Source: Bacteroidia bacterium (lineage in GTDB: Bacteria; Bacteroidota; Bacteroidia; M30B66). Taken from it: a DNA stretch of 64,000 nucleotides. The stretch covers positions 1,248,001 to 1,312,000 of the forward strand of contig OZ257142.1 of the NCBI GenBank assembly GCA_965279035.1, in the 5' to 3' direction. A model generated the notes under the pieces. The model did not search any database. It was not told the DNA's origin and saw only the letters and a list, made by a program, of their open reading frames with translations. Each line of letters begins with the position of its first letter. Within the stretch, counting starts at the first letter, position 1. The translations under genes were made by a program, and so were the position numbers. This document shows, piece by piece, positions 7,011 through 31,121 of this stretch.

Positions 7011-8249
7011 ATGATTCACTATTCACGCTTTACTCTAAAAAATGGATTGAAAGTCATTGTGCATGAAGATGCTTCTACACCTTTGGCTTGTATTAATATT
7101 TTGTATGATGTTGGTGCACGAGATGAAAATCCTGAACAGACAGGCTTTGCGCATCTTTTTGAACATTTGATGTTTGGTGGCTCGATCAATATTCCAAGTT
7201 ACGATACACCTTTACAAGAGGCCGGAGGCGAAAACAATGCATTCACCAATAATGATATCACAAATTATTATTTAACACTTCCTGCTCAAAACCTCGAAAC
7301 TGGCTTTTGGTTGGAATCAGATCGTATGCTCAGTTTGGCATTTTCCGATAAAAGTTTGGAAGTGCAGCGAAGTGTCGTTATTGAAGAATTCAAACAACGT
7401 TATTTGAATCAACCCTATGGGGATGAATGGTTGTTGATTCGTCCGCTTGCCTATCATGTTCATCCGTATCGTTGGGCAACAATTGGTAAGGAAATAAAGC
7501 ACATCGAAGATGCTAAAATGGAAGATGTTCGGGCATTTTTCAATCGTTTCTATTTGCCTTCCAATGCCATTATGGTGGTAGCTGGTGATGTAAAATATGA
7601 TGATGTAAAACGACTTGCTGAAAAATGGTTTGAACCAATTCCTTCAGGCCAAAAGCCCATACGTTTAATTCCTGCCGAACCCAAACAAAGTTCTCCTCGA
7701 AGAGAAACTGTATACAGAGATGTGCCTTCTGATTCGATTCACAAAGTGTATCATATGGCAGCTCGCATGGATCCAGAATATCATGCACAAGACTTACTTT
7801 CGGATGTGCTTGGACGTGGACAATCATCTCGTTTATTTAATGCATTGGTAAAGGATCGTCAATTATTCACCGAAATTTCGGCGCATGTAAGTGGCAGTTT
7901 CGATAAAGGACTTTTCGTTATCAATGGACGATTACGAAATGGCGTTTCTCCCGAAGAAGCAGAATCAGGAATTCAACAAGAAATTGATCGAATTCTAATA
8001 GAAGGAATCTCGGAAAATGAACTCACCAAAGTGAAAAACAAAGCAGAAAGCACTCATGTTTTTGGTGAAGTAAGTGTGCTCAATAAAGCCATGAATTTAG
8101 CTTTTGGTGAATTGTTGGGTGATATTGAAATGATCAATACTGAAATTTCAAAATTGCAAGCAGTTACTTCCGAAGCTGTTTTGAATGAAGCTAAAAAAAT
8201 CCTTACCGAAGAAAATTGTTCTACACTTTACTACCTGCGAAATCAATGA
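7011..8249 (+). CDS. M16 (pitrilysin) family zinc peptidase, catalytic subunit
   Basis: GFAHLFEHLMF (HxxEH), NAFT; start moved from TTG 6948 to ATG 7011. Confidence 0.92.
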   Translation: MIHYSRFTLKNGLKVIVHEDASTPLACINILYDVGARDENPEQTGFAHLFEHLMFGGSINIPSYDTPLQEAGGENNAFTNNDITNYYLTLPAQNLETGFWLESDRMLSLAFSDKSLEVQRSVVIEEFKQRYLNQPYGDEWLLIRPLAYHVHPYRWATIGKEIKHIEDAKMEDVRAFFNRFYLPSNAIMVVAGDVKYDDVKRLAEKWFEPIPSGQKPIRLIPAEPKQSSPRRETVYRDVPSDSIHKVYHMAARMDPEYHAQDLLSDVLGRGQSSRLFNALVKDRQLFTEISAHVSGSFDKGLFVINGRLRNGVSPEEAESGIQQEIDRILIEGISENELTKVKNKAESTHVFGEVSVLNKAMNLAFGELLGDIEMINTEISKLQAVTSEAVLNEAKKILTEENCSTLYYLRNQ

Positions 8250-9529
8250 ATCAACTAGATCGTCAAACAGCACCTGCTATTTTCCCTGTTGATTCTGTGA
8301 ATCCGCAAATGCCTGAGCAATTCACGCTTTCCAATGGGATTGAAGTATATAGTCTTTCCGCTGGATCGCAGGAAGTGATCAAAGTGGAACTCGTTTTTTC
8401 TGCAGGAACTTCTCGTCACGAAAATCCACTTCTACCTTCGTTTACAACCTCCATGTTGCAAGAAGGAACTTCGAAACGTTCTGCTTCACAAATTGCCTCT
8501 GCGATTGATGATTACGGTGCATTTTTAGAACTCGATATCGACAAGGATTTTTCGGGTATCACCTTATATTCCTTGAACAAATACCTCGGACAAACACTTC
8601 CTGTAATTCAAGATTTGCTTATCGATGCACAGTTTCCAGAAAATGAATGGGAAATTTTGAGAGCCAATCGATTGCAGAAATACTCTGTAAATCTTGGCAA
8701 AGTGGGTTTTGTTGCTGGTAAACGATTTCAAGAATTATTATTCAATGGAACAGCGTATGGGACTTCATTCGATGAAGAAACGTATAAAGCATTAAAGAAA
8801 GAAGACTTACAGCGATTCTATCAATTGCATTATGCTCCTAAAGCAGCCAAACTATTTCTCAGTGGAAAGATTGAAGAAAATGTTAAATCACTGATCGAAT
8901 CTACATTTGGGAATTTACCTGGAAATGGGAATTTTCAACAGGCTTTAAGCATTGAAAAAAGTCATCGTTTAGAAGATCAGAAACAATTTATTTATAAGGA
9001 AGACGCAATACAATCAGCCATTCGAATTGGACGAAGATTATTTGCTAAAAATCATCCCGATTATTTCGGAATGAAGGTTCTTTCAACCATTCTTGGTGGA
9101 TATTTTGGATCACGATTGATGACGAACATTCGTGAAGATAAGGGCTATACCTATGGCATTGGTGCTGGTTCGGTAGCTTATCGATCGGATGGATATTTTT
9201 ACATCAGTACCGAAGTTGGAGCCGATGTTTGTGCCGATGCTTTGATAGAAATATACAAGGAAATTGACATTTTGAGGAATGAACTGGTTTCTACAGAGGA
9301 ATTGGAATTAGTGAAAAGTTATTTGCTTGGTTCGTTATTGAAGAGTTTCGAAGGACCTTTTGAACGAATGGATCGTTTTAAAAACGTATTTCTATTTGAT
9401 GGTGGCGATCTCTATTTTCAACGTTATACTGAAGAAATTCGTGGTATAACACCAGAGCGATTACTACAATTAGCACAAACTTGGCTTCGAGAAGAAGATT
9501 TAATTGAACTGGTTGTTGGAAAGAAATGA
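8246..9529 (+). CDS. M16 family peptidase, non-catalytic partner subunit
   Basis: No HxxEH; SRLMTNIREDKGYTYG R/Y motif; ATGA overlap with the upstream stop (start moved from 8216). Confidence 0.88.
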   Translation: MNQLDRQTAPAIFPVDSVNPQMPEQFTLSNGIEVYSLSAGSQEVIKVELVFSAGTSRHENPLLPSFTTSMLQEGTSKRSASQIASAIDDYGAFLELDIDKDFSGITLYSLNKYLGQTLPVIQDLLIDAQFPENEWEILRANRLQKYSVNLGKVGFVAGKRFQELLFNGTAYGTSFDEETYKALKKEDLQRFYQLHYAPKAAKLFLSGKIEENVKSLIESTFGNLPGNGNFQQALSIEKSHRLEDQKQFIYKEDAIQSAIRIGRRLFAKNHPDYFGMKVLSTILGGYFGSRLMTNIREDKGYTYGIGAGSVAYRSDGYFYISTEVGADVCADALIEIYKEIDILRNELVSTEELELVKSYLLGSLLKSFEGPFERMDRFKNVFLFDGGDLYFQRYTEEIRGITPERLLQLAQTWLREEDLIELVVGKK

Positions 9530-19147: not shown

Positions 19148-20590
19148 TTAAATACCCAAACCGTAATATGCTCTTGCCCCATTTGGATATAATCCTTCAA
19201 TTAGGAGGCCTTTTCTTTCGGATTTTAAAGCTTCAGTCAGGTCTTCAATCGAGTTTACAGCCTTTTCACCAATGTTGGTTATAATAAAACCTTCTCGAAT
19301 GCCGATGTTTCTTAATCTTCCTTCTCGGATATTTTGGACTCGAAGTCCATTTTGGATTTTCAGAGCACTTTTCTCATTTGAATTAATTGGAGTGAATTCA
19401 GCACCTAATTCTTCTTTTATCGACTCAGTATACCGTACTAGACGAGTATCTCCATTTTTATTTTTAAGCACAACTGAAATCTCTTTTTCACTTCCGCCTC
19501 TGTTAATGGTTAATTGAACCTTGTCTCCTGGTCTGTATCGACCTATTTGTTCTTGTAATTCAGGAACATTATTAACAGTCACATCTTGAATCTTCAAAAT
19601 AATATCTCCTTCTTTTACACCACTTTCTTCGGCGGCTCCACCTGCATTTAAACCTGAAACATACACACCTTTTAATTCAGAAATATCTTTTCTTTTACCT
19701 AAATCGGCGTTCAAGTCTTCTAAGACTACGCCTATAAATGCTCTTTGTACTTCTCCAAATTCCAAAAGATCAGCAACAACCTTTCGAACAATATTGACTG
19801 GAACTGCGAAAGAATATCCTGAATAAGATCCTGTATTAGAAGCAATAGCTGAATTTATTCCGATAAGCTCCCCATTGGCGTTTACTAATGCTCCTCCGCT
19901 ATTTCCTGGATTCACTGCGGCATCTGTTTGAATAAAGGATTCTATCGCAAATTTCTCATTTAAAATATTGATGTTTCGTCCTTTAGCACTGATGATTCCG
20001 GCTGTTACTGTAGATGTTAAACTAAAGGGATTTCCAACGGCAAGAGCCCATTCACCTACTTTTACTTGATCAGAATTTCCGTAATAAATGAATGGGAGAT
20101 TTTTAGCATCTACTTTCAACAAAGCTAAATCGGTGCTTGGATCTCGCCCAATAACTTCTGCATTATATTCACGTTTGTCATTTAAAACGATTTCAACTTT
20201 ATCTGCATTTTGAATCACATGGTTATTTGTTACGATATAACCATCTTCCGATATAATAACACCTGAACCAGATGCCATCGCTTTTTGAGCTGGTGCATCC
20301 CGGTAAGGGTTTCCAAAAAAGAAATCATAAAAAGGATCATAGCTAGCAGCTCTTCTATTATTTGTGACTGTTTTTACATGGACAACTCCATGTACTGATT
20401 GTTCTGCAGCTTGAGTTAAATCTGGGGCATTTGATAAATTGCTTCCATGAACGGATGTTTGTTGTACCGGTAAACGTTCACTTGTCAATCTTTCAAATCC
20501 ATCTGGTGATGAATAGAAAAAGTGACTGAAGCTCAATGCTGCTAAGCCCCCCACACAAGCAATTCCGAGGGTTGAAAGAAACTTTTTCAT
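19148..20590 (-). CDS. degP: HtrA/DegP (Do) serine endopeptidase with two PDZ domains
   Basis: GSGVI, VTNNHV, TDLALLK, QTDAAVNPGNSGG. Confidence 0.93.
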   Translation of the reverse strand: MKKFLSTLGIACVGGLAALSFSHFFYSSPDGFERLTSERLPVQQTSVHGSNLSNAPDLTQAAEQSVHGVVHVKTVTNNRRAASYDPFYDFFFGNPYRDAPAQKAMASGSGVIISEDGYIVTNNHVIQNADKVEIVLNDKREYNAEVIGRDPSTDLALLKVDAKNLPFIYYGNSDQVKVGEWALAVGNPFSLTSTVTAGIISAKGRNINILNEKFAIESFIQTDAAVNPGNSGGALVNANGELIGINSAIASNTGSYSGYSFAVPVNIVRKVVADLLEFGEVQRAFIGVVLEDLNADLGKRKDISELKGVYVSGLNAGGAAEESGVKEGDIILKIQDVTVNNVPELQEQIGRYRPGDKVQLTINRGGSEKEISVVLKNKNGDTRLVRYTESIKEELGAEFTPINSNEKSALKIQNGLRVQNIREGRLRNIGIREGFIITNIGEKAVNSIEDLTEALKSERKGLLIEGLYPNGARAYYGLGI

Positions 20591-20795: not shown

Positions 20796-21467
20796 ATGAA
20801 AAATCAAGGTGGTAAAACAATTTTCTTTCTCAGCGGAATCTTAATTGGGATTCTTGCCGGGCTTGGATTGGTATTTATTCTCCTCAACGATATTAATCCT
20901 TTTGCAATATTTAAATCATCTGGAAATAATTCGTATGACACACTTGTCGACAAAACACAAAAAAATGAAACGACTTTAGTGAGGTCTCCAAAAAATCGTC
21001 TCGAAAAAAATACTCAACAAAATACTGAGTTCATTGATACTTCAAACTCAACTGTTCCTTTTGATTCAAATTCAAATTTAACAGATGAGCAATTGAATTC
21101 GGATGATATTATTGTCCAAAGGGATAAACTCATTGAAACGCGTGAATTGAAATTAATTCAGATTGAAAAGAATGGATCTAAAGGAAAATCCGATTCTTTA
21201 CTGAAAGTCTTTCAAGGATCTTCTTCGAATTCAATTGAATTTAGAATTGAATTCTGGAATTCTCCAATCAATTACAAAGGATATAAATTTGTCAGAAATG
21301 TTATTGTGGCTTTTGGTTTAGATACCCAAGATCCAAGCAAATTATTTCTTTTCGAAGACAAATATTATCTCAAACACGGAGCTTCGGTTTTTAAAATAAT
21401 GAATACCGAAAAATTCGAACCGTATTATAAAGTCACTGACGAGAACTTGATAAAACAATTACGTTGA
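20796..21467 (+). CDS. Hypothetical membrane-anchored protein
   Basis: N-terminal TM helix, S/T/N-rich linker, C-domain FWNSPINYKGYK; TGATG-coupled to dapF. Confidence 0.75.
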   Translation: MKNQGGKTIFFLSGILIGILAGLGLVFILLNDINPFAIFKSSGNNSYDTLVDKTQKNETTLVRSPKNRLEKNTQQNTEFIDTSNSTVPFDSNSNLTDEQLNSDDIIVQRDKLIETRELKLIQIEKNGSKGKSDSLLKVFQGSSSNSIEFRIEFWNSPINYKGYKFVRNVIVAFGLDTQDPSKLFLFEDKYYLKHGASVFKIMNTEKFEPYYKVTDENLIKQLR

Positions 21468-22261
21468 TGCGTATTAAATTTCAAAAATACCAAGCAGCAG
21501 GAAACGATTTCATTTTAATTGATGATCGAGATCGAAAATTTGATGTTAAGAATAGCAGTCTAATTCAGACTTTGTGTCATCGCAGATTTGGAATTGGAGC
21601 CGATGGATTGATTTTATTTCGTACCGATCCTACTGTCGACTTTAGAATGATTTATTTTAATTCTGATGGATATGAAGGTTCGATGTGCGGAAATGGTGGA
21701 CGTTGTGCAGCTGCATTTGGGGCGCAGTTCTTCCCCGAAAAACATCAGTTTAGTTTTAATGCTTTTGATGGATTGCATACTGCCGAATTATTGTCCTCTA
21801 AAGGAGATGGATTTATTGTTCGACTTCAAATGCAACAAGTAGCACTACCAGAAATTATTGGAGAAGATCTCTTATTAAATACAGGTTCTCCTCACTACGT
21901 TCATTTTGTAGAAGACGCTGGAGCCATTGACGTACCAACTGAAGGTCGGACAATTCGAAATTCAACACGATTTTTACGTGAAGGAGTGAATGTTAATTTT
22001 GTTGAAGTTCATCGAGATTCACTTACTGTTAGGACCTATGAAAGAGGTGTTGAAGAAGAAACACTTTCCTGCGGAACAGGAGTAACGGCATCAGTAATTG
22101 CCGCATTTGTTCGTGGTAAAATTAGCAATCAACCGGTTCAGGTTTTTACTCGTGGAGGTGAAATGAAAGTATCTTTTAATCCTTCTCCAGAAGGCGATTT
22201 TAACGATGTCTTCCTCACTGGAGAAGCAATGCCAGTTTTTATGGGCGAGATAGAATTATGA
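21467..22261 (+). CDS. dapF: Diaminopimelate epimerase
   Basis: GNDFI, GIGADG, SMCGNGGRC, TYERGVEEETLSCGTG. Confidence 0.96.
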   Translation: MRIKFQKYQAAGNDFILIDDRDRKFDVKNSSLIQTLCHRRFGIGADGLILFRTDPTVDFRMIYFNSDGYEGSMCGNGGRCAAAFGAQFFPEKHQFSFNAFDGLHTAELLSSKGDGFIVRLQMQQVALPEIIGEDLLLNTGSPHYVHFVEDAGAIDVPTEGRTIRNSTRFLREGVNVNFVEVHRDSLTVRTYERGVEEETLSCGTGVTASVIAAFVRGKISNQPVQVFTRGGEMKVSFNPSPEGDFNDVFLTGEAMPVFMGEIEL

Positions 22262-22797
22262 GTTTTTCATATCCACTGAAAAATATTGTTCCTTTAGAAT
22301 TACCTCTAGATAATCATCCACATATCTTAATTCTCCATGCGGACAAACAACCTGTTCATGTTGCTTTCGTTTGGAATGAACTCTATTATTCCCTTACTTA
22401 CAAAGGTCCCGAAACAGCTATTCCTCTCTCTACTCGACTTAAATTAATTCGAATTCGTCGAATTCCTTGTCTGTGGTTAAAACTAAATCTCCCCTTAATT
22501 TCAATAAATAAAGAAAGAATTAATTCAATTTTTAATCAATATCCTCCTTTAAATAGTAGCGAAACTTGCTTAACTCCCATTTGGGATTTTCTTCAAATAG
22601 CTTATTCTATCCCCTCAGGAAAGCCACTTATTTTTGGCTTGCTTGATTCAATTGCAGAACATAAACTCTTATTACAAATTGCCTCTTTTCAATTAGATAA
22701 TATTGTTAATGGAGAATTTTCTCTGCCTTATTATTCCTCTGAAAGCGTTGAAAATAGAATCACTTTATTAGCATCTACTTTGAAAAAGAAATTCTGA
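22258..22797 (+). CDS. Hypothetical protein, possible permuted papain-like fold
   Basis: ATGA overlap with dapF; PVHVAF...YYS, later Y...ETC. Confidence 0.6.
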   Translation: MSFSYPLKNIVPLELPLDNHPHILILHADKQPVHVAFVWNELYYSLTYKGPETAIPLSTRLKLIRIRRIPCLWLKLNLPLISINKERINSIFNQYPPLNSSETCLTPIWDFLQIAYSIPSGKPLIFGLLDSIAEHKLLLQIASFQLDNIVNGEFSLPYYSSESVENRITLLASTLKKKF

Positions 22798-22846: not shown

Positions 22847-25800
22847 ATGAAGTTATTCTATACGTTTCTTACTTTATTCTTTTTATCAATCAGTTCAATA
22901 AATCTTAAAGCTCAAGAGGATAAATTAATTCCTCCAATAGCTCCTCGTTCATTTTGGTCAGATACCATTCATGGAGACATTCGTTTGGATGAATATCATT
23001 GGATGAGGCAGAAAACAGAACCTCAAACAATCAATCATCTCTATGCCGAAAATGGGTATTCCGACAGAGTAATGGCTGGTTCTTCATTATTAATGAAGAA
23101 AATGTTTGAAGAATTAAAAAGCCGAATTCCAGACAAAACTGAATCCTTACCATCTCGATTAAAAAAGTACCTCTATTATTCTCGATATGAATCGGGAATG
23201 GATTATCCAGTCTATTATAGAAAAGCCGATTCTTTAAATTCAACAGAGAAACTATTAATCGACTTTAATGAAATCGCAAAATCTTATAATTATTTCAATA
23301 TCGCAGCACTAGGAATTAGCCCTGACAATCAGAAAATGTATTATGGAGTTGATGGAAAAGGAGATCGAATCTTCAATCTGTATTTTAAAAATTTACAAAC
23401 TGATGCGTATTTGTCTGATACATTGAAAGGAATAAATGGTGTTTGTTGGTTAGGCAATGATGCTGTATTATATACTGTTCCAGAAGCAAATACAAAACGT
23501 TCTTTTAAAGTAATTAAACATGTTTTAGGTAGACCTTTAACCGAAGACATTCTTTTATTCGAAGAGAAGGACGTAACGTTTAATATTGGCTTATCACGTT
23601 CAGATTCAGAACGTTTTATCTTCCTTGTTAGTTCTCAAACACTTTCGGATGAAGTTTGGATTATGGACGTCCAAAACAGTGAAGCTGGATTTCGAATCAT
23701 TGAACCGCGAAGAAAAAATCATTTATATAGTTTAGAGCATTATGAAGGTGATCAATTTTACATTTTATCTGATGATAATGCTCCGAATCAAAAAATACTC
23801 ACCTGTCCAATAAATACTCCTCAACAGAAATATTGGAAAGAATTAATTCCTCATCGAAGTGATGTATTGATTGCTGGTTTTCAAATATCCAACGGGAAAA
23901 TAATTCTAACAGAACAATTCGATGCACGTCAACGTGTTGCAGTAATTGATCCTAAAGATTTATCAAAAACATATTTACCAATTCCAGAAGAACCAGCATC
24001 GGTTGGAGTAAGCGGCTATTACGAATTTAATGAACCTAAAATTCGCTATTCATTTTCCAGCAATCGATTTCCAACTGAAGTTTGGGATTATGATTTAAAT
24101 TCTGGTGAAAGAGTATTAATTCGAAGAGATACTGTGAAAGGAGGATACAATCCAGATAATTATATTTCTGAACGTATTTATGCGACTGCTTCTGATAGCA
24201 CCCAAATCCCAATAACATTAATCTATAAAAAAGGACTAAAAAAAGACGGAAATAATCCTACTTGGTTAAGCGCCTATGGTTCATATGGCAATCCTTCACT
24301 TCCAGGATTTTCAACAGGAAATTTAGCCTTATTAGATAGAGGTTTCGTGGTTGCTGAAGCTCATATTCGTGGTGGAAATGATTGTGGTCGACTTTGGTAC
24401 GAAAACGGAAAACTCCTAAAAAAGAAAAATACGTTTACTGATTTTATAGCCTGTGCAGAGAAACTAATTTCAGATGCATATACAAACCCTAAAAAATTAG
24501 CTATACAAGGCGGTAGTGCAGGAGGATTATTAATGGGAGCAGTAGTTAATATGCGTCCTGATTTATTTGCAGCTGTTGTTGCAAATGTTCCTTTTGTTGA
24601 TGTTGTAAACACAATGCTAGACCCAACATTGCCCTTAACAACCTTTGAATACGATGAATGGGGAAATCCGAATGATCCCGTTTATTATAATTACATAAAA
24701 TCCTATGCTCCTTATGAAAATGTAAAATCCCAGAATTATCCTTCGATGTTGGTTACTGGTGGTTACAATGATTCTCAAGTACCTTATTGGGAGCCAGCAA
24801 AATGGGTTGCTCGTTTAAGAGCACTTAAAACGGATTCAAACCTATTACTTCTAAAAATAAATATGGATGCCGGTCATGGCGGTAGTTCTGGGCGCTTTGG
24901 TGGACTTAAAGACCGATCATTTGAAATGGCTTTTGTTCTTCGTGCTTTAGGTGTGAAAGAGGATTATCTCACCATTAAAGGTCGTACAACCGATACGCAA
25001 GGGAACGAACTTCCTTTTGTCAATGTCTTTATTGAAGGTTCAACCATAGGAACTGCATCTAATGAAAATGGACAGTTTAGCCTTGATCTTCGGCAAAAAA
25101 ATTCTCAAAACATCGTTTTCTCATCGATTGGATTTAAAAAGAAAGTGGTCCCGATCACCTTAAAAACGGATATCAATAATTTAAAAGTAGCCCTTGAACC
25201 CGAGAATTATCAAATTAAAACGTTTGAAGTAAAAGCCAATGCAAAAGATCCTGCTTATGCGGTGATGAAAAATGCAATCAGAATGCGCAAAAGCCATCTT
25301 GAACAAGTAGATGCTTACTCTTCTGATATTTATATAAAGGGAAGCGTTCGCTTGAATGAAATCCCTAAGAAAATGCCATTCTTTATTTCGAAAGAATCTA
25401 TGCCCGATTCAAATGATTTGGGTTTAGTTTATTTATCTGAATCGGTTGCAAGATATCATGTTCGTCAACCTTCGGATTACAAAGAAGAAATGATTGCATC
25501 CAAAATAGCCGGTATGAAACAAGGCTTTAGTTGGAATCGAGTTTCTGATGTACTCTTGAATTTTTACGAAAATCTTGTTGATTTCGATTATTATGCAGAT
25601 CGTGGTTTTGTTTCTCCTGTCTCTGAATCAGCCATGTTTTATTACAAATTTAAAATGATCGGAACGTTCATAGAAAATGGGAAAACAATCAATCGAATTG
25701 CTCTAGAACCTAAACGAAAATCCGATCCATGCTTTCGTGGTGAAATCTTTATTGTGGATGATTCATGGCATATTCACAGTGTGGATATGATGCTTACAAA

Positions 25801-27394
25801 AGATGCCCAAATTCAATATGTGGATACGCTATATATCAAGCAGGAATATGTTCCTATGGAAGATAGCCTTTGGATGCCTCTATCCATGCAGCTGAAAAGT
25901 CACATTAAATTTTTTGGTTTTGGTGCAACAGATAAATCAATAGGTGTTTTTTCAAATTATAAACTTCATCCCGTATATCCGAAAAACTTTTTTGGAAATG
26001 AGGTCTTTAAAGTGGAAGATAAAGCCAATAAAAAAGACACAGTTTATTGGATTGAAACACGCCCAATGACTTTAACTCCCGAAGAAGAGCGAAACTACCG
26101 CAAAGCCGATAGCACCGAAGCTGTTCAAACGACAAAACCCTACATGGATTCTTTAGATAGAATCAACAATAAAATAAGCATTAGCAAAATGCTCATCTCT
26201 GGTCTCTCATTTCGAGATTCCTATAATAAATCAGGATTAAATATCAATCCACTCATTGCCATGGTCTCTTTTAATGCTACCGAAGGTTTGGTTTTTAAGC
26301 CTGTTGTTCAATATTATAAAGCCTATGAAGACAACCATTCCTGGTTTGTAGATGCAGAAGGTCGATATGGAGTTTCAGATAATCGATTCAAAGGTGGACT
26401 GCGTTATTGGACCATGACCAATCGGAAGAAATTTAATTGGTGGCATTTGGAAGCAGGGCGATTTGTTACTCAGTTAAACGGATCAAACCCAATTTCACCT
26501 TTAGTGAATGCAGCATATAGTTTAATCGATAAACAAAATCTAATTCGTCTTTATGATAAAACTGGTGCAACCGTCACATGGAATCGTGAAGTTGTAAATG
26601 GAATTATGCTTCAAGCTGCAGCAACATGGCAGGATCGTAAAAGTTATTCAAATAGAACAGACTACAGTTGGAGCAATAAAACACTTCAACCGTATGCATC
26701 AAACTACTCAGTAGGTTCTGATTCAATCGGAAATCAAACAAATTCTCAATTGGCTGAGATTTCAATCAAAGCGCGGTTTCGAATCAATCAGAAATATGAA
26801 TCCCGTGAGAATTTAAAAATCATCAAAGATTCTAAATGGCCTTCATTTTTTGTCGAATTATCGCAAGCCATCCCTAAAATTGCAGGTTCCGACATTCAAT
26901 ACACGCATCTTGAAGGAGCTATTGGAGATGAACTCAAATTTGGATTATTGGGAGATAGCAAATACAAAATTATTGCTGGTTGCTTTTTAGGAACATCAGG
27001 TATGCAATTCGTCGATAATCAACATTTCAATGGGAATGAGACATTTCTATTAAGAAATTTCAATTCCACCTTGCCGTTCGATTTCTTTCAGTCTTCGCTT
27101 CGTCGATTTAACGCCCTGCATTATTACTCAAACAGTACAAATAACTCTTACCTTGAAATTCATTATGAGCACCAGTTCTATAATTGGTTAACGAATAAAG
27201 TTCCATTGTTGAGAAAAACATTATTTGGAACTGTTGCTGGAGCTAATATTCTTTGGGTAGATCATCACCCATTATACTCCGAACTTTATGTAGGAGTTGA
27301 TAATATTTTGAAAGTTCTTCGGATTGATTTTGTTAGTCAATATACTCCTGGGCAAGCTTTAAAACCCTTGATACGATTTGGGTTGAAACTATAA
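22847..27394 (+). CDS. Fusion of S9A oligopeptidase B, a carboxypeptidase-regulatory-like domain and a DUF5686-type outer-membrane barrel
   Basis: Signal peptide; GGSAGG, EYDEWGNP, NDSQV, AGHGG; then IKGRTTD..LPFVNV..GT.SNENGQF..FSSIGF; DPAYAVMKNAI, YLSES; C-terminal IRFGLKL. Confidence 0.85.
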   Translation: MKLFYTFLTLFFLSISSINLKAQEDKLIPPIAPRSFWSDTIHGDIRLDEYHWMRQKTEPQTINHLYAENGYSDRVMAGSSLLMKKMFEELKSRIPDKTESLPSRLKKYLYYSRYESGMDYPVYYRKADSLNSTEKLLIDFNEIAKSYNYFNIAALGISPDNQKMYYGVDGKGDRIFNLYFKNLQTDAYLSDTLKGINGVCWLGNDAVLYTVPEANTKRSFKVIKHVLGRPLTEDILLFEEKDVTFNIGLSRSDSERFIFLVSSQTLSDEVWIMDVQNSEAGFRIIEPRRKNHLYSLEHYEGDQFYILSDDNAPNQKILTCPINTPQQKYWKELIPHRSDVLIAGFQISNGKIILTEQFDARQRVAVIDPKDLSKTYLPIPEEPASVGVSGYYEFNEPKIRYSFSSNRFPTEVWDYDLNSGERVLIRRDTVKGGYNPDNYISERIYATASDSTQIPITLIYKKGLKKDGNNPTWLSAYGSYGNPSLPGFSTGNLALLDRGFVVAEAHIRGGNDCGRLWYENGKLLKKKNTFTDFIACAEKLISDAYTNPKKLAIQGGSAGGLLMGAVVNMRPDLFAAVVANVPFVDVVNTMLDPTLPLTTFEYDEWGNPNDPVYYNYIKSYAPYENVKSQNYPSMLVTGGYNDSQVPYWEPAKWVARLRALKTDSNLLLLKINMDAGHGGSSGRFGGLKDRSFEMAFVLRALGVKEDYLTIKGRTTDTQGNELPFVNVFIEGSTIGTASNENGQFSLDLRQKNSQNIVFSSIGFKKKVVPITLKTDINNLKVALEPENYQIKTFEVKANAKDPAYAVMKNAIRMRKSHLEQVDAYSSDIYIKGSVRLNEIPKKMPFFISKESMPDSNDLGLVYLSESVARYHVRQPSDYKEEMIASKIAGMKQGFSWNRVSDVLLNFYENLVDFDYYADRGFVSPVSESAMFYYKFKMIGTFIENGKTINRIALEPKRKSDPCFRGEIFIVDDSWHIHSVDMMLTKDAQIQYVDTLYIKQEYVPMEDSLWMPLSMQLKSHIKFFGFGATDKSIGVFSNYKLHPVYPKNFFGNEVFKVEDKANKKDTVYWIETRPMTLTPEEERNYRKADSTEAVQTTKPYMDSLDRINNKISISKMLISGLSFRDSYNKSGLNINPLIAMVSFNATEGLVFKPVVQYYKAYEDNHSWFVDAEGRYGVSDNRFKGGLRYWTMTNRKKFNWWHLEAGRFVTQLNGSNPISPLVNAAYSLIDKQNLIRLYDKTGATVTWNREVVNGIMLQAAATWQDRKSYSNRTDYSWSNKTLQPYASNYSVGSDSIGNQTNSQLAEISIKARFRINQKYESRENLKIIKDSKWPSFFVELSQAIPKIAGSDIQYTHLEGAIGDELKFGLLGDSKYKIIAGCFLGTSGMQFVDNQHFNGNETFLLRNFNSTLPFDFFQSSLRRFNALHYYSNSTNNSYLEIHYEHQFYNWLTNKVPLLRKTLFGTVAGANILWVDHHPLYSELYVGVDNILKVLRIDFVSQYTPGQALKPLIRFGLKL

Positions 27395-30380: not shown

Positions 30381-31121
30381 TTATTCAAATGTGATCGAAA
30401 AATAAATGGCTTTTGAATGCAAACTATTTAACCCAAGTGTATAGAGGTTATTATCTTGAACCAATAGGTTTTTCAAGCCATACGACATTTTAATTTCGGG
30501 AGTAAATTTGAAATATTGGGAATAGAAATCAAAACCAAAACCGATTTCATAATTAAAATCATTCCTTTTTAGCTTCAGAATTTTCTCACCCTTATCATCT
30601 ACCTTATCCTGTGAAGCAAGGTCAATAACTGGTTTGAAGCCTCCAATGATATAAGCTCTTCCATTATTTAATCGTGCTGATTTAAATTTCAAAAGAAGTG
30701 GAAATTCAAGGAATGTTGATTCAACACGCTTTGTTCTTGAAATAACAGAATCTTGTGAGACAAGCCGAATTTTATAATCCAAACGTTTTTCTCCAAAGGA
30801 CAGGGTTGGTAAAAAGCGAAGGTCAAAATTATCTCCAATGTGAAGATTTGAAATGATTCCTAATGTGAAACCAGCTGCGGCACCAGGTTCAATGGTTAAA
30901 ACAGAATCGATGTTTCTTAAATCCTTGATTGGTGTTGGGATAAAATTAAACGAGTTAGTTCCCAACAAAAAACCAAAGTGTATGGTTTGCTTATCGTAGT
31001 TAGGTAAATTCAATACTTTTCGCTTTTGAGCAGAAAGTGTTGAGGCAGAAAATCCTGTCAGCAAGAGCATCAACAGGAGGATTCGATTAGAGAACACTAT
31101 TTTGGTAATAGGTAGTTTCAA
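30381..31121 (-). CDS. porT: T9SS outer-membrane protein PorT/SprT
   Basis: Signal peptide, NLPNYD...HFGF, DLRFLP, EFPLLLK, KFTPEI, C-terminal FE; directly downstream of ubiE. Confidence 0.85.
   Translation of the reverse strand: MKLPITKIVFSNRILLLMLLLTGFSASTLSAQKRKVLNLPNYDKQTIHFGFLLGTNSFNFIPTPIKDLRNIDSVLTIEPGAAAGFTLGIISNLHIGDNFDLRFLPTLSFGEKRLDYKIRLVSQDSVISRTKRVESTFLEFPLLLKFKSARLNNGRAYIIGGFKPVIDLASQDKVDDKGEKILKLKRNDFNYEIGFGFDFYSQYFKFTPEIKMSYGLKNLLVQDNNLYTLGLNSLHSKAIYFSITFE

Follow-up and report, generated by a model that had tools for sequence, protein, structure and literature searches.

A conserved in-frame fusion of an oligopeptidase-B-like peptidase with a DUF5686 protein of predicted outer-membrane location in a Bacteroidia bacterium

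The window considered here, a stretch of 64,000 nucleotides from a Bacteroidia bacterium (GTDB lineage Bacteroidota; Bacteroidia; M30B66; assembly GCA_965279035.1, contig OZ257142.1, positions 1,248,001 to 1,312,000 of the forward strand), carries a gene in which an oligopeptidase-B (OpB or OpdB)-like serine peptidase of family S9A continues in frame into a protein of the family DUF5686. The best explanation of this gene, with a probability of roughly 0.55, is a periplasmic OpB-type peptidase anchored to a DUF5686 outer-membrane protein. An earlier sequence-only reading of this DNA had described a single open reading frame (ORF) of 1515 residues, and this is borne out by the ORF list, by the translation (22847..27394, + strand, 1515 residues plus stop; protein P0001) and by the order of the Pfam families along the protein (Peptidase_S9_N, Peptidase_S9, CarbopepD_reg_2 and DUF5686). 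The same reading placed a signal peptide ahead of the peptidase, and the N-terminus does read by eye as a probable Sec signal peptide (residues 1-22, 22847..22912), with Gln23 following the likely cleavage site after 'LKA'; Gln also predominates here in the consensus of 49 fused sequences.

The fusion of S9A peptidase and DUF5686 is, as judged from sequence comparison, genuine and neither a chimera nor a one-off. Only four residues, K704-Y707 (24956..24967, from the family alignment; consensus K-E-N-Y), lie between the last helix of the peptidase and the first strand of the following domain, in agreement with the near-absence of a linker noticed earlier at about 24960, and this junction is free of gaps in all 49 aligned full-length fused proteins. 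Relatives of the same architecture form ~110 database clusters with 38-75% identity to the window protein, and one search of the protein collection yielded 92 proteins besides P0001 that carry these domains, 89 of them 1449-1547 residues long and three truncated by contig ends. When DUF5686 homologues of at least 1421 residues were gathered with the C-terminal half as query, every one (101/101) proved to be the same S9 fusion, and no other N-terminal partner of DUF5686 was found among these 101. In metagenomic contigs, the peptidase directly abuts DUF5686 in frame in four of the 80 DUF5686 loci. The sequence-only reading had proposed checking whether reads span 24900-25050 and whether the architecture recurs elsewhere; apart from the recurrence just described, four sequencing runs on a single sample, from which the window assembly may itself derive, gave contigs 49-57 kb long that bridge 24000-26000 with zero differences. 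An artefact or accident, i.e. a chimeric assembly or a stop codon recently lost between neighbouring genes, in either case biologically meaningless, is thus practically negligible as an explanation. OpdB and DUF5686 genes are usually separate, but no evidence in support of an artefact was found, and the shared in-frame build of ~110 independent database clusters and four metagenome contigs, the bridging contigs, and the invariance of the catalytic residues and the gap-free junction despite divergence down to 38% identity all argue against it.

The N-terminal half is, on sequence grounds, an OpB-like S9A peptidase with intact catalytic residues. It comprises a beta-propeller domain (Peptidase_S9_N, residues 38-426, 22958..24124; Pfam E 3e-87), aligned with OpB 7ywp_A, and an alpha/beta-hydrolase catalytic domain (Peptidase_S9, residues 488-702, 24308..24952; Pfam E 1e-66). 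The alignment of residues 28-699 runs over nearly the whole of the 676-residue chain 7ywp_A (its residues 2-673; E 7e-171), and solved OpB chains as a group (E 7e-171 to 2.5e-126) are far closer to P0001 than prolyl endopeptidases (1.8e-72 or weaker). The four motifs reported earlier were all recovered where they had been placed, namely GGSAGG at residues 555-560 (nt 24509-24526), EYDEWG at 601, NDSQV at 641 and AGHGG at 675. Motifs and family alignment together assign the catalytic triad to Ser557 (nt 24515-24517), Asp642 (nt 24770-24772) and His677 (nt 24875-24877); these three residues and Glu604 are invariant in 112/112 fused proteins, and the claim of a full S9A peptidase with a complete triad therefore stands. 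The acidic pocket E601-Y-D603-E604 (24647..24658, from the sequence) is the putative determinant of a preference for Arg or Lys at P1, a role reported for Salmonella OpdB and presumed here. Within this pocket, position 603 is acidic (D or E) in 88/112 fused proteins, while E601 is retained in 92/112 and replaced by His in the remaining 20. All 89 standalone OpdB relatives, in contrast, have Glu at this position, and the change from E601 to His in part of the fused clade may reflect a shift in substrate preference.

Immediately after the junction lies a domain of the kind that forms the N-terminal extension (NTE) of SusC-type transporters (CarboxypepD_reg-like; residues 709-791, 24971..25219), identified by Pfam (CarbopepD_reg_2, residues 710-791, E 1e-15) as well as by its predicted fold, which superimposes on the NTE of SusC-dex (9hfj_A) with Z 13.8 and a root-mean-square deviation of 1.6 A over 80 aligned residues. 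The carboxypeptidase-regulatory-like domain expected here was thus found by both routes. It is followed by a linker with a degenerate TonB-box-like segment (Q789-A797, 25211..25237; family alignment), for which a low model confidence (predicted local distance difference test, pLDDT, 61-70) is as expected of a flexible linker. In standalone DUF5686 proteins, the consensus after the NTE is L-K-E-V-V-I, succeeded by a conserved helix beginning E-D-P-A-Y, and the DUF5686 family profile aligns L-K-E-V-V-I with V-D-E-V-V-V of BT1763 (6ytc_A), L-D-E-V-V-V of the SusC homologue 8aa4_A (E 1e-13) and L-N-E-V-V-V of the TonB-linked receptor 9gbc_A (E 5.5e-19). The segment in BT1763 is a TonB box established by deletion and alanine replacement (PMC7782687). 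Pfam finds neither a plug (PF07715) nor a receptor barrel (PF00593) in P0001, and the barrels of TonB receptors match its predicted barrel with Z of only 10.3-12.6.

The DUF5686 match itself is complete (residues 806-1484 of P0001, model positions 1-669 of 669, 667.1 bits against a cut-off of 39.2). Two structure models were used to divide it, one of residues 705-1515 (pLDDT 86.8; predicted template-modelling score, pTM, 0.80) and one of residues 795-1130 (pLDDT 88, pTM 0.82). According to these models, DUF5686 would consist of a LolA-like domain, a helical linker and an Omp85-like barrel, the likeness being one of fold only. The sequence-only reading had called the C-terminal half barrel-like and had suggested structure prediction as a check; the model does fold the last ~390 residues as a beta-barrel, and the description holds for that part, but the family also includes the LolA-like domain and the helical linker.

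The first of these parts, a predicted open beta-barrel domain resembling the LolA superfamily (residues ~801-1056, 25247..26014; from the fold matches of the second model), forms the N-terminal half of DUF5686 and opens, in both models, with a long conserved helix that follows the NTE (~residues 801-818). Its VIA matches are the DUF1329 protein 4z48_B (Z 9.9), 3bk5_A (Z 9.6), P. gingivalis LolA3 9tp6_A (Z 9.5) and P. gingivalis LolB 9tpm_A (Z 7.9). All top VIA and Foldseek matches of this middle domain belong to the LolA/LolB superfamily, with moderate Z, a coverage of 170-191 residues and Foldseek E values from 1.5e-7 (4z48_A) to 1e-4. The helical linker (~1066-1117, 26042..26197) was delimited by DSSP on both models. 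The predicted C-terminal beta-barrel (~1124-1515, 26216..27391) is matched best by members of the Omp85 superfamily, namely Sam50 7btw_A (Z 18.1), TamA 9xdc_A (Z 17.7), Toc75 7vcf_B (Z 17.7), F. johnsoniae BamA 9n2d_A (Z 17.1), FhaC (Z 15.5) and CdiB (Z 15.0); Omp85-family barrels as a whole score Z 14.4-18.1 against 13.9 for the best barrel of another family, and Foldseek returns BamA 5or1 (E 4e-8). Conserved columns of the family mark a loop motif in this barrel, H1393-F-N-G-N1397 (nt 27023-27037), which sits in a conserved loop of ~50 residues that precedes the last ~five barrel strands (DSSP and conservation).

Sequence searches did not return these relationships. Pfam, at E values up to 10, reports DUF5686 alone in both halves of the region and no PF01103, POTRA or LolA-type match; the DUF5686 family profile, searched against PDB sequences, finds NTE domains only and no Omp85 protein; searches with PF01103 in five genomes matched other genes but never their DUF5686 genes; and a profile-profile comparison by hhalign between 59 DUF5686 proteins and 12 Omp85 barrels of Bacteroidota yields a probability of 0.8%.

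Taken together, these parts suggest a single exported polypeptide whose C-terminal barrel would be embedded in the outer membrane, while the peptidase, the SusC-type NTE, the TonB-box-like linker, the LolA-like domain and the helical linker would follow one another in the periplasm. The peptidase would then remain tethered at all times to the periplasmic side of the outer membrane and would cut short peptides containing Arg or Lys after their passage across that membrane, with the DUF5686 part retaining whichever role it has in the many bacteria in which it stands alone. The probable periplasmic placement rests on the homology of the NTE and the TonB box, since TonB is periplasmic and a joint of four residues would keep the peptidase on the same side as the NTE. 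In standalone DUF5686 proteins, the signal peptide stands immediately ahead of the NTE, and in the fusion the peptidase is inserted between the two. Furthermore, a proteome table of Tannerella forsythia vesicles assigns one DUF5686 protein to the outer membrane (PMC10682907). The sequence-only reading had pictured a periplasmic peptidase under an outer-membrane channel; the periplasmic tether is likely for the reasons given, but a peptide import channel is supported in part only and fits the predicted folds poorly. Omp85 proteins are insertases or translocases and not nutrient channels.

Various observations weigh against this explanation of a periplasmic, anchored peptidase. P0001 scores 556.7 bits with NF007511, the NCBIfam equivalog model for oligopeptidase B, below its cut-off of 1313, and the enzyme is therefore described as an OpB-like S9A peptidase rather than a certified equivalog, with a presumed specificity for Arg and Lys. 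The strand count from the DSSP string of the barrel gives no clean 16, the number of strands in Omp85 barrels. Many fused proteins keep the TonB-box-like motif, but the subclade of the window has the degenerate form Q-I-K-T-F-E-V-K-A, so that TonB coupling may have been lost there. The segment L-x-E-V-V-V moreover follows the NTE in a second, barrel-less group of proteins (P0106 type, described below), and it may consequently be a feature of the NTE module and not a working TonB box. As regards the two halves, OpdB is absent within up to 8 kb of DUF5686 in 76/80 metagenomic loci, and the two genes stand apart from each other in the 401 sampled genomes, mostly at a great distance wherever a position was listed for both; since standalone DUF5686 and OpdB are unlinked in most genomes, there is little comparative support for a hand-over of substrate between them. 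For the same reasons, the earlier proposal that the fusion is a Rosetta-stone hint at DUF5686 barrels importing or processing peptides appears weak. Lastly, an enzyme followed by an Omp85-like barrel is also the order of type Vd autotransporters, which export their enzyme.

This last point raises the alternative of type-V-like export, in which the Omp85-like barrel would move its own peptidase to the cell surface as PlpD does with its lipase. Apart from the agreement in order, the best fold matches of the barrel are Omp85 proteins and include the two-partner-secretion translocators FhaC and CdiB, while the helix at ~801-818 recalls by its position the pore-plugging helix of FhaC. Nevertheless, such export is very unlikely, as the protein has neither a POTRA domain nor a PF01103 signal, hhalign gives its family a probability of only 0.8% against Bacteroidota Omp85 barrels, the homology of the NTE and TonB box indicates the periplasm, and the linker between peptidase and NTE is too short to cross the barrel. 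Most members of DUF5686 also lack any passenger, and the identical S9 passenger in all 101 long members leaves no passenger diversity.

A coupled machine, in which the two halves act on one substrate, is a further, unlikely alternative. Here, DUF5686 would import or extract a hydrophobic or lipid-bearing peptide, whose greasy part would be held in the LolA-like cavity while the oligopeptidase cuts its basic part; the candidate cargo, to be put forward with as much reserve, would be a lipopeptide or the N-terminal remnant of a lipoprotein, in a process that might be driven by TonB. The predicted LolA-superfamily fold of the middle domain, the TonB-box-like segment of the DUF5686 family and the long retention of the fusion, with its rigid and conserved joint, are in line with such coupling. 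To these can be added two further, independent and weak links to oligopeptidases. In five of the 80 metagenomic loci, a standalone DUF5686 gene is immediately followed, on its own strand, by two M16 (insulinase-type) peptidase genes with signal-peptide-like N-termini; these five loci belong to two DUF5686 lineages (L093:3458-6158, L096:10384-13155, L099:10624-13323; L107:4036-6732, L113:10401-13081). A full S9A gene of the prolyl-oligopeptidase type lies 197 nt downstream of DUF5686, also on the same strand (L197:3777-5804, - strand, genome G257), in one of 30 genome loci. These links are rare (5/80 and 1/30), however, and the M16 pair is missing from two loci closely related to the M16-linked L107, namely L120 and L108. 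Among the 30 genome loci, M16 neighbours were not found at all and any S9A gene nearby in only two; an OpdB gene 3.7 kb from DUF5686 is on the opposite strand (L204, genome G001). In addition, no ligand is known, the Z for LolA-like proteins is moderate (9.9 at most), and OpdB-type enzymes are not known to admit any but short peptides. A broader version extends the idea to the entire family, which would be a hitherto unrecognised class of outer-membrane machine in Bacteroidota (SusC-type NTE with TonB box, LolA-like lipid-holding domain and Omp85-like barrel) that carries lipid-bearing peptides or parts of lipoproteins through the outer membrane or extracts them from it, with the fusion and the M16 and S9A neighbours pointing to a peptide cargo degraded in the periplasm; this is quite unlikely and is offered as speculation.

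The age of the fusion was approached with trees built by FastTree only, one of DUF5686 (112 fused and 65 standalone rows) and one of the peptidase (209 rows). In the former, a single branch with a Shimodaira-Hasegawa-like support of 99 separates the 112 fused rows and 10 standalone rows from the 55 remaining standalone rows; in the latter, the 112 fused rows, joined by 3 truncated ones, stand opposite 94 others with a support of only 59. The standalone rows nested among fused ones fall in the range P0094-P0105, and at least two of these, P0095 and P0098, derive from ~3 kb contigs and are possibly fragments, while L097, likewise nested among fused rows, is a true standalone DUF5686 gene with its own signal peptide. 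Both trees are consistent with a single old fusion event and few later losses.

With respect to distribution, the fusion is rare and DUF5686 itself is common in Bacteroidota. No match spanning the junction was found in 401 evenly drawn Bacteroidota genomes, and no DUF5686 frame longer than 977 residues occurred among the 150 matches listed from 201 genomes (29 more matches existed). Of these 201 genomes, 122 carry DUF5686, frequently with two or three genes each; among 14 control genomes, B. thetaiotaomicron alone has it. A scan of the genome contigs for peptidase motifs gave at least 80 loci, those kept being OpdB-only throughout, and is uninformative as to the absence of the fusion. In one genome (G205), two DUF5686 paralogues stand in tandem (L199:5998-11342, - strand), with 32% and 28% identity to the C-terminal half of the window protein.

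A second architecture that combines OpdB with an NTE was met in six database proteins of 1156-1173 residues (P0106, P0113, P0115, P0117, P0118 and P0120). Their order is signal peptide, NTE, L-x-E-V-V-V, helix, ~370 residues without a Pfam family and a full C-terminal OpdB, with no barrel. By hhalign, their match to DUF5686 extends no further than the signal peptide, the NTE and the first part of the helix (probability 98.8); the middle of ~370 residues gives no significant match to the LolA-like part of DUF5686 (hhalign probability 0.6%, null result in a hidden Markov model search), with a weak lead from the Atlas to a DUF5686 cluster (score 0.87, rank 11).

As for the surroundings of the fused gene, the 64 kb window contains no second copy of OpdB or DUF5686, and an Rfam scan of it gave 0 matches. 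Neither of the two ORFs directly upstream (20796-21467 and 22258-22797), between which dapF is located, has a Pfam family. Further away are an HtrA/DegP-type protease (Trypsin_2 and PDZ; 19148-20590, - strand), a small barrel protein of the OMP_b-brl_2 family (30381-31121, - strand) and, ~13.5 kb upstream, an M16-like peptidase pair (7014-9340, + strand) with 32% and 22% identity to the pair in L096. Conserved neighbours of the fused gene were not found, as the five flanking proteins of the window are without counterparts in the loci L098, L100 and L103; by Pfam, the neighbours of the fused genes in L098 and L103 are unrelated housekeeping genes.

In the literature searched, DUF5686 is named only in a proteome table and in a retron survey, neither of which studies it, in keeping with its earlier description as uncharacterised. 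Searches of the same literature returned nothing on this architecture, whether as a fusion of OpdB to an outer-membrane protein, as an Omp85 barrel with a carboxypeptidase-regulatory domain or as a combination of LolA-like domain and Omp85 barrel in Bacteroidota, and to our knowledge no oligopeptidase B covalently anchored to an outer-membrane barrel has been described. Proteins of this kind are already on record in databases, annotated as 'DUF5686 family protein' or 'oligopeptidase B'; the sequences as such are known, and their build is undiscussed in the literature searched. The fusion physically ties a widespread family to an enzyme of known chemistry and provides a first functional handle on it. 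Furthermore, the models suggest an unusual build of SusC-like N-terminus, LolA-like domain and Omp85-like barrel, and an anonymous family gains testable hypotheses on the handling of peptides or lipopeptides at the outer membrane.

Various known systems share parts of this build. Oligopeptidase B (Serratia proteamaculans 7ywp, Trypanosoma brucei 4bp8 and Leishmania major 2xe4) has the same propeller and catalytic domain over the full length, with the Ser/Asp/His triad and the acidic E-x-D/E-E pocket, but P0001 has a signal peptide, falls short of the equivalog score and continues covalently into a probable outer-membrane protein. Standalone DUF5686 proteins (PF18939, ~770-980 residues) show the same order of NTE, linker and DUF5686 and 31-43% identity to the C-terminal half of the window protein; they differ in lacking the peptidase, in having the signal peptide directly before the NTE and in a better conserved TonB-box-like segment. 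SusC-like TonB-dependent transporters (BT1763 and SusC-dex BT3090) share the NTE fold, and the profile matches to them run through the position of the TonB box, whereas P0001 has neither their plug domain nor their 22-stranded receptor barrel. The LolA/LolB superfamily (DUF1329 4z48, 3bk5, 9tp6 and 9tpm) resembles the predicted fold of the middle domain, which in P0001 would be built into an outer-membrane protein rather than forming a soluble carrier or lipoprotein, and has no LolA-type hit in Pfam. Members of the Omp85 superfamily (BamA, TamA, Sam50, Toc75 and FhaC) are the best matches of the predicted barrel; P0001 differs from them in the lack of POTRA domains and of a PF01103 signal, in the profile-profile probability of 0.8% and in a C-terminal residue other than Phe, with which the 12 Bacteroidota Omp85 proteins examined all end. 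The type Vd autotransporter PlpD has the order of enzyme and then barrel, and P0001 shares it. Finally, the BBJ25 cluster of Borrelia (PMC13078400) pairs an Omp85-family protein with a LolA-like protein in a proposed transfer of a non-polar ligand to the outer membrane; the same two kinds of part are predicted in P0001, although in Borrelia they are encoded by separate genes together with an ATP-binding cassette (ABC) transporter, without a peptidase and in another phylum.

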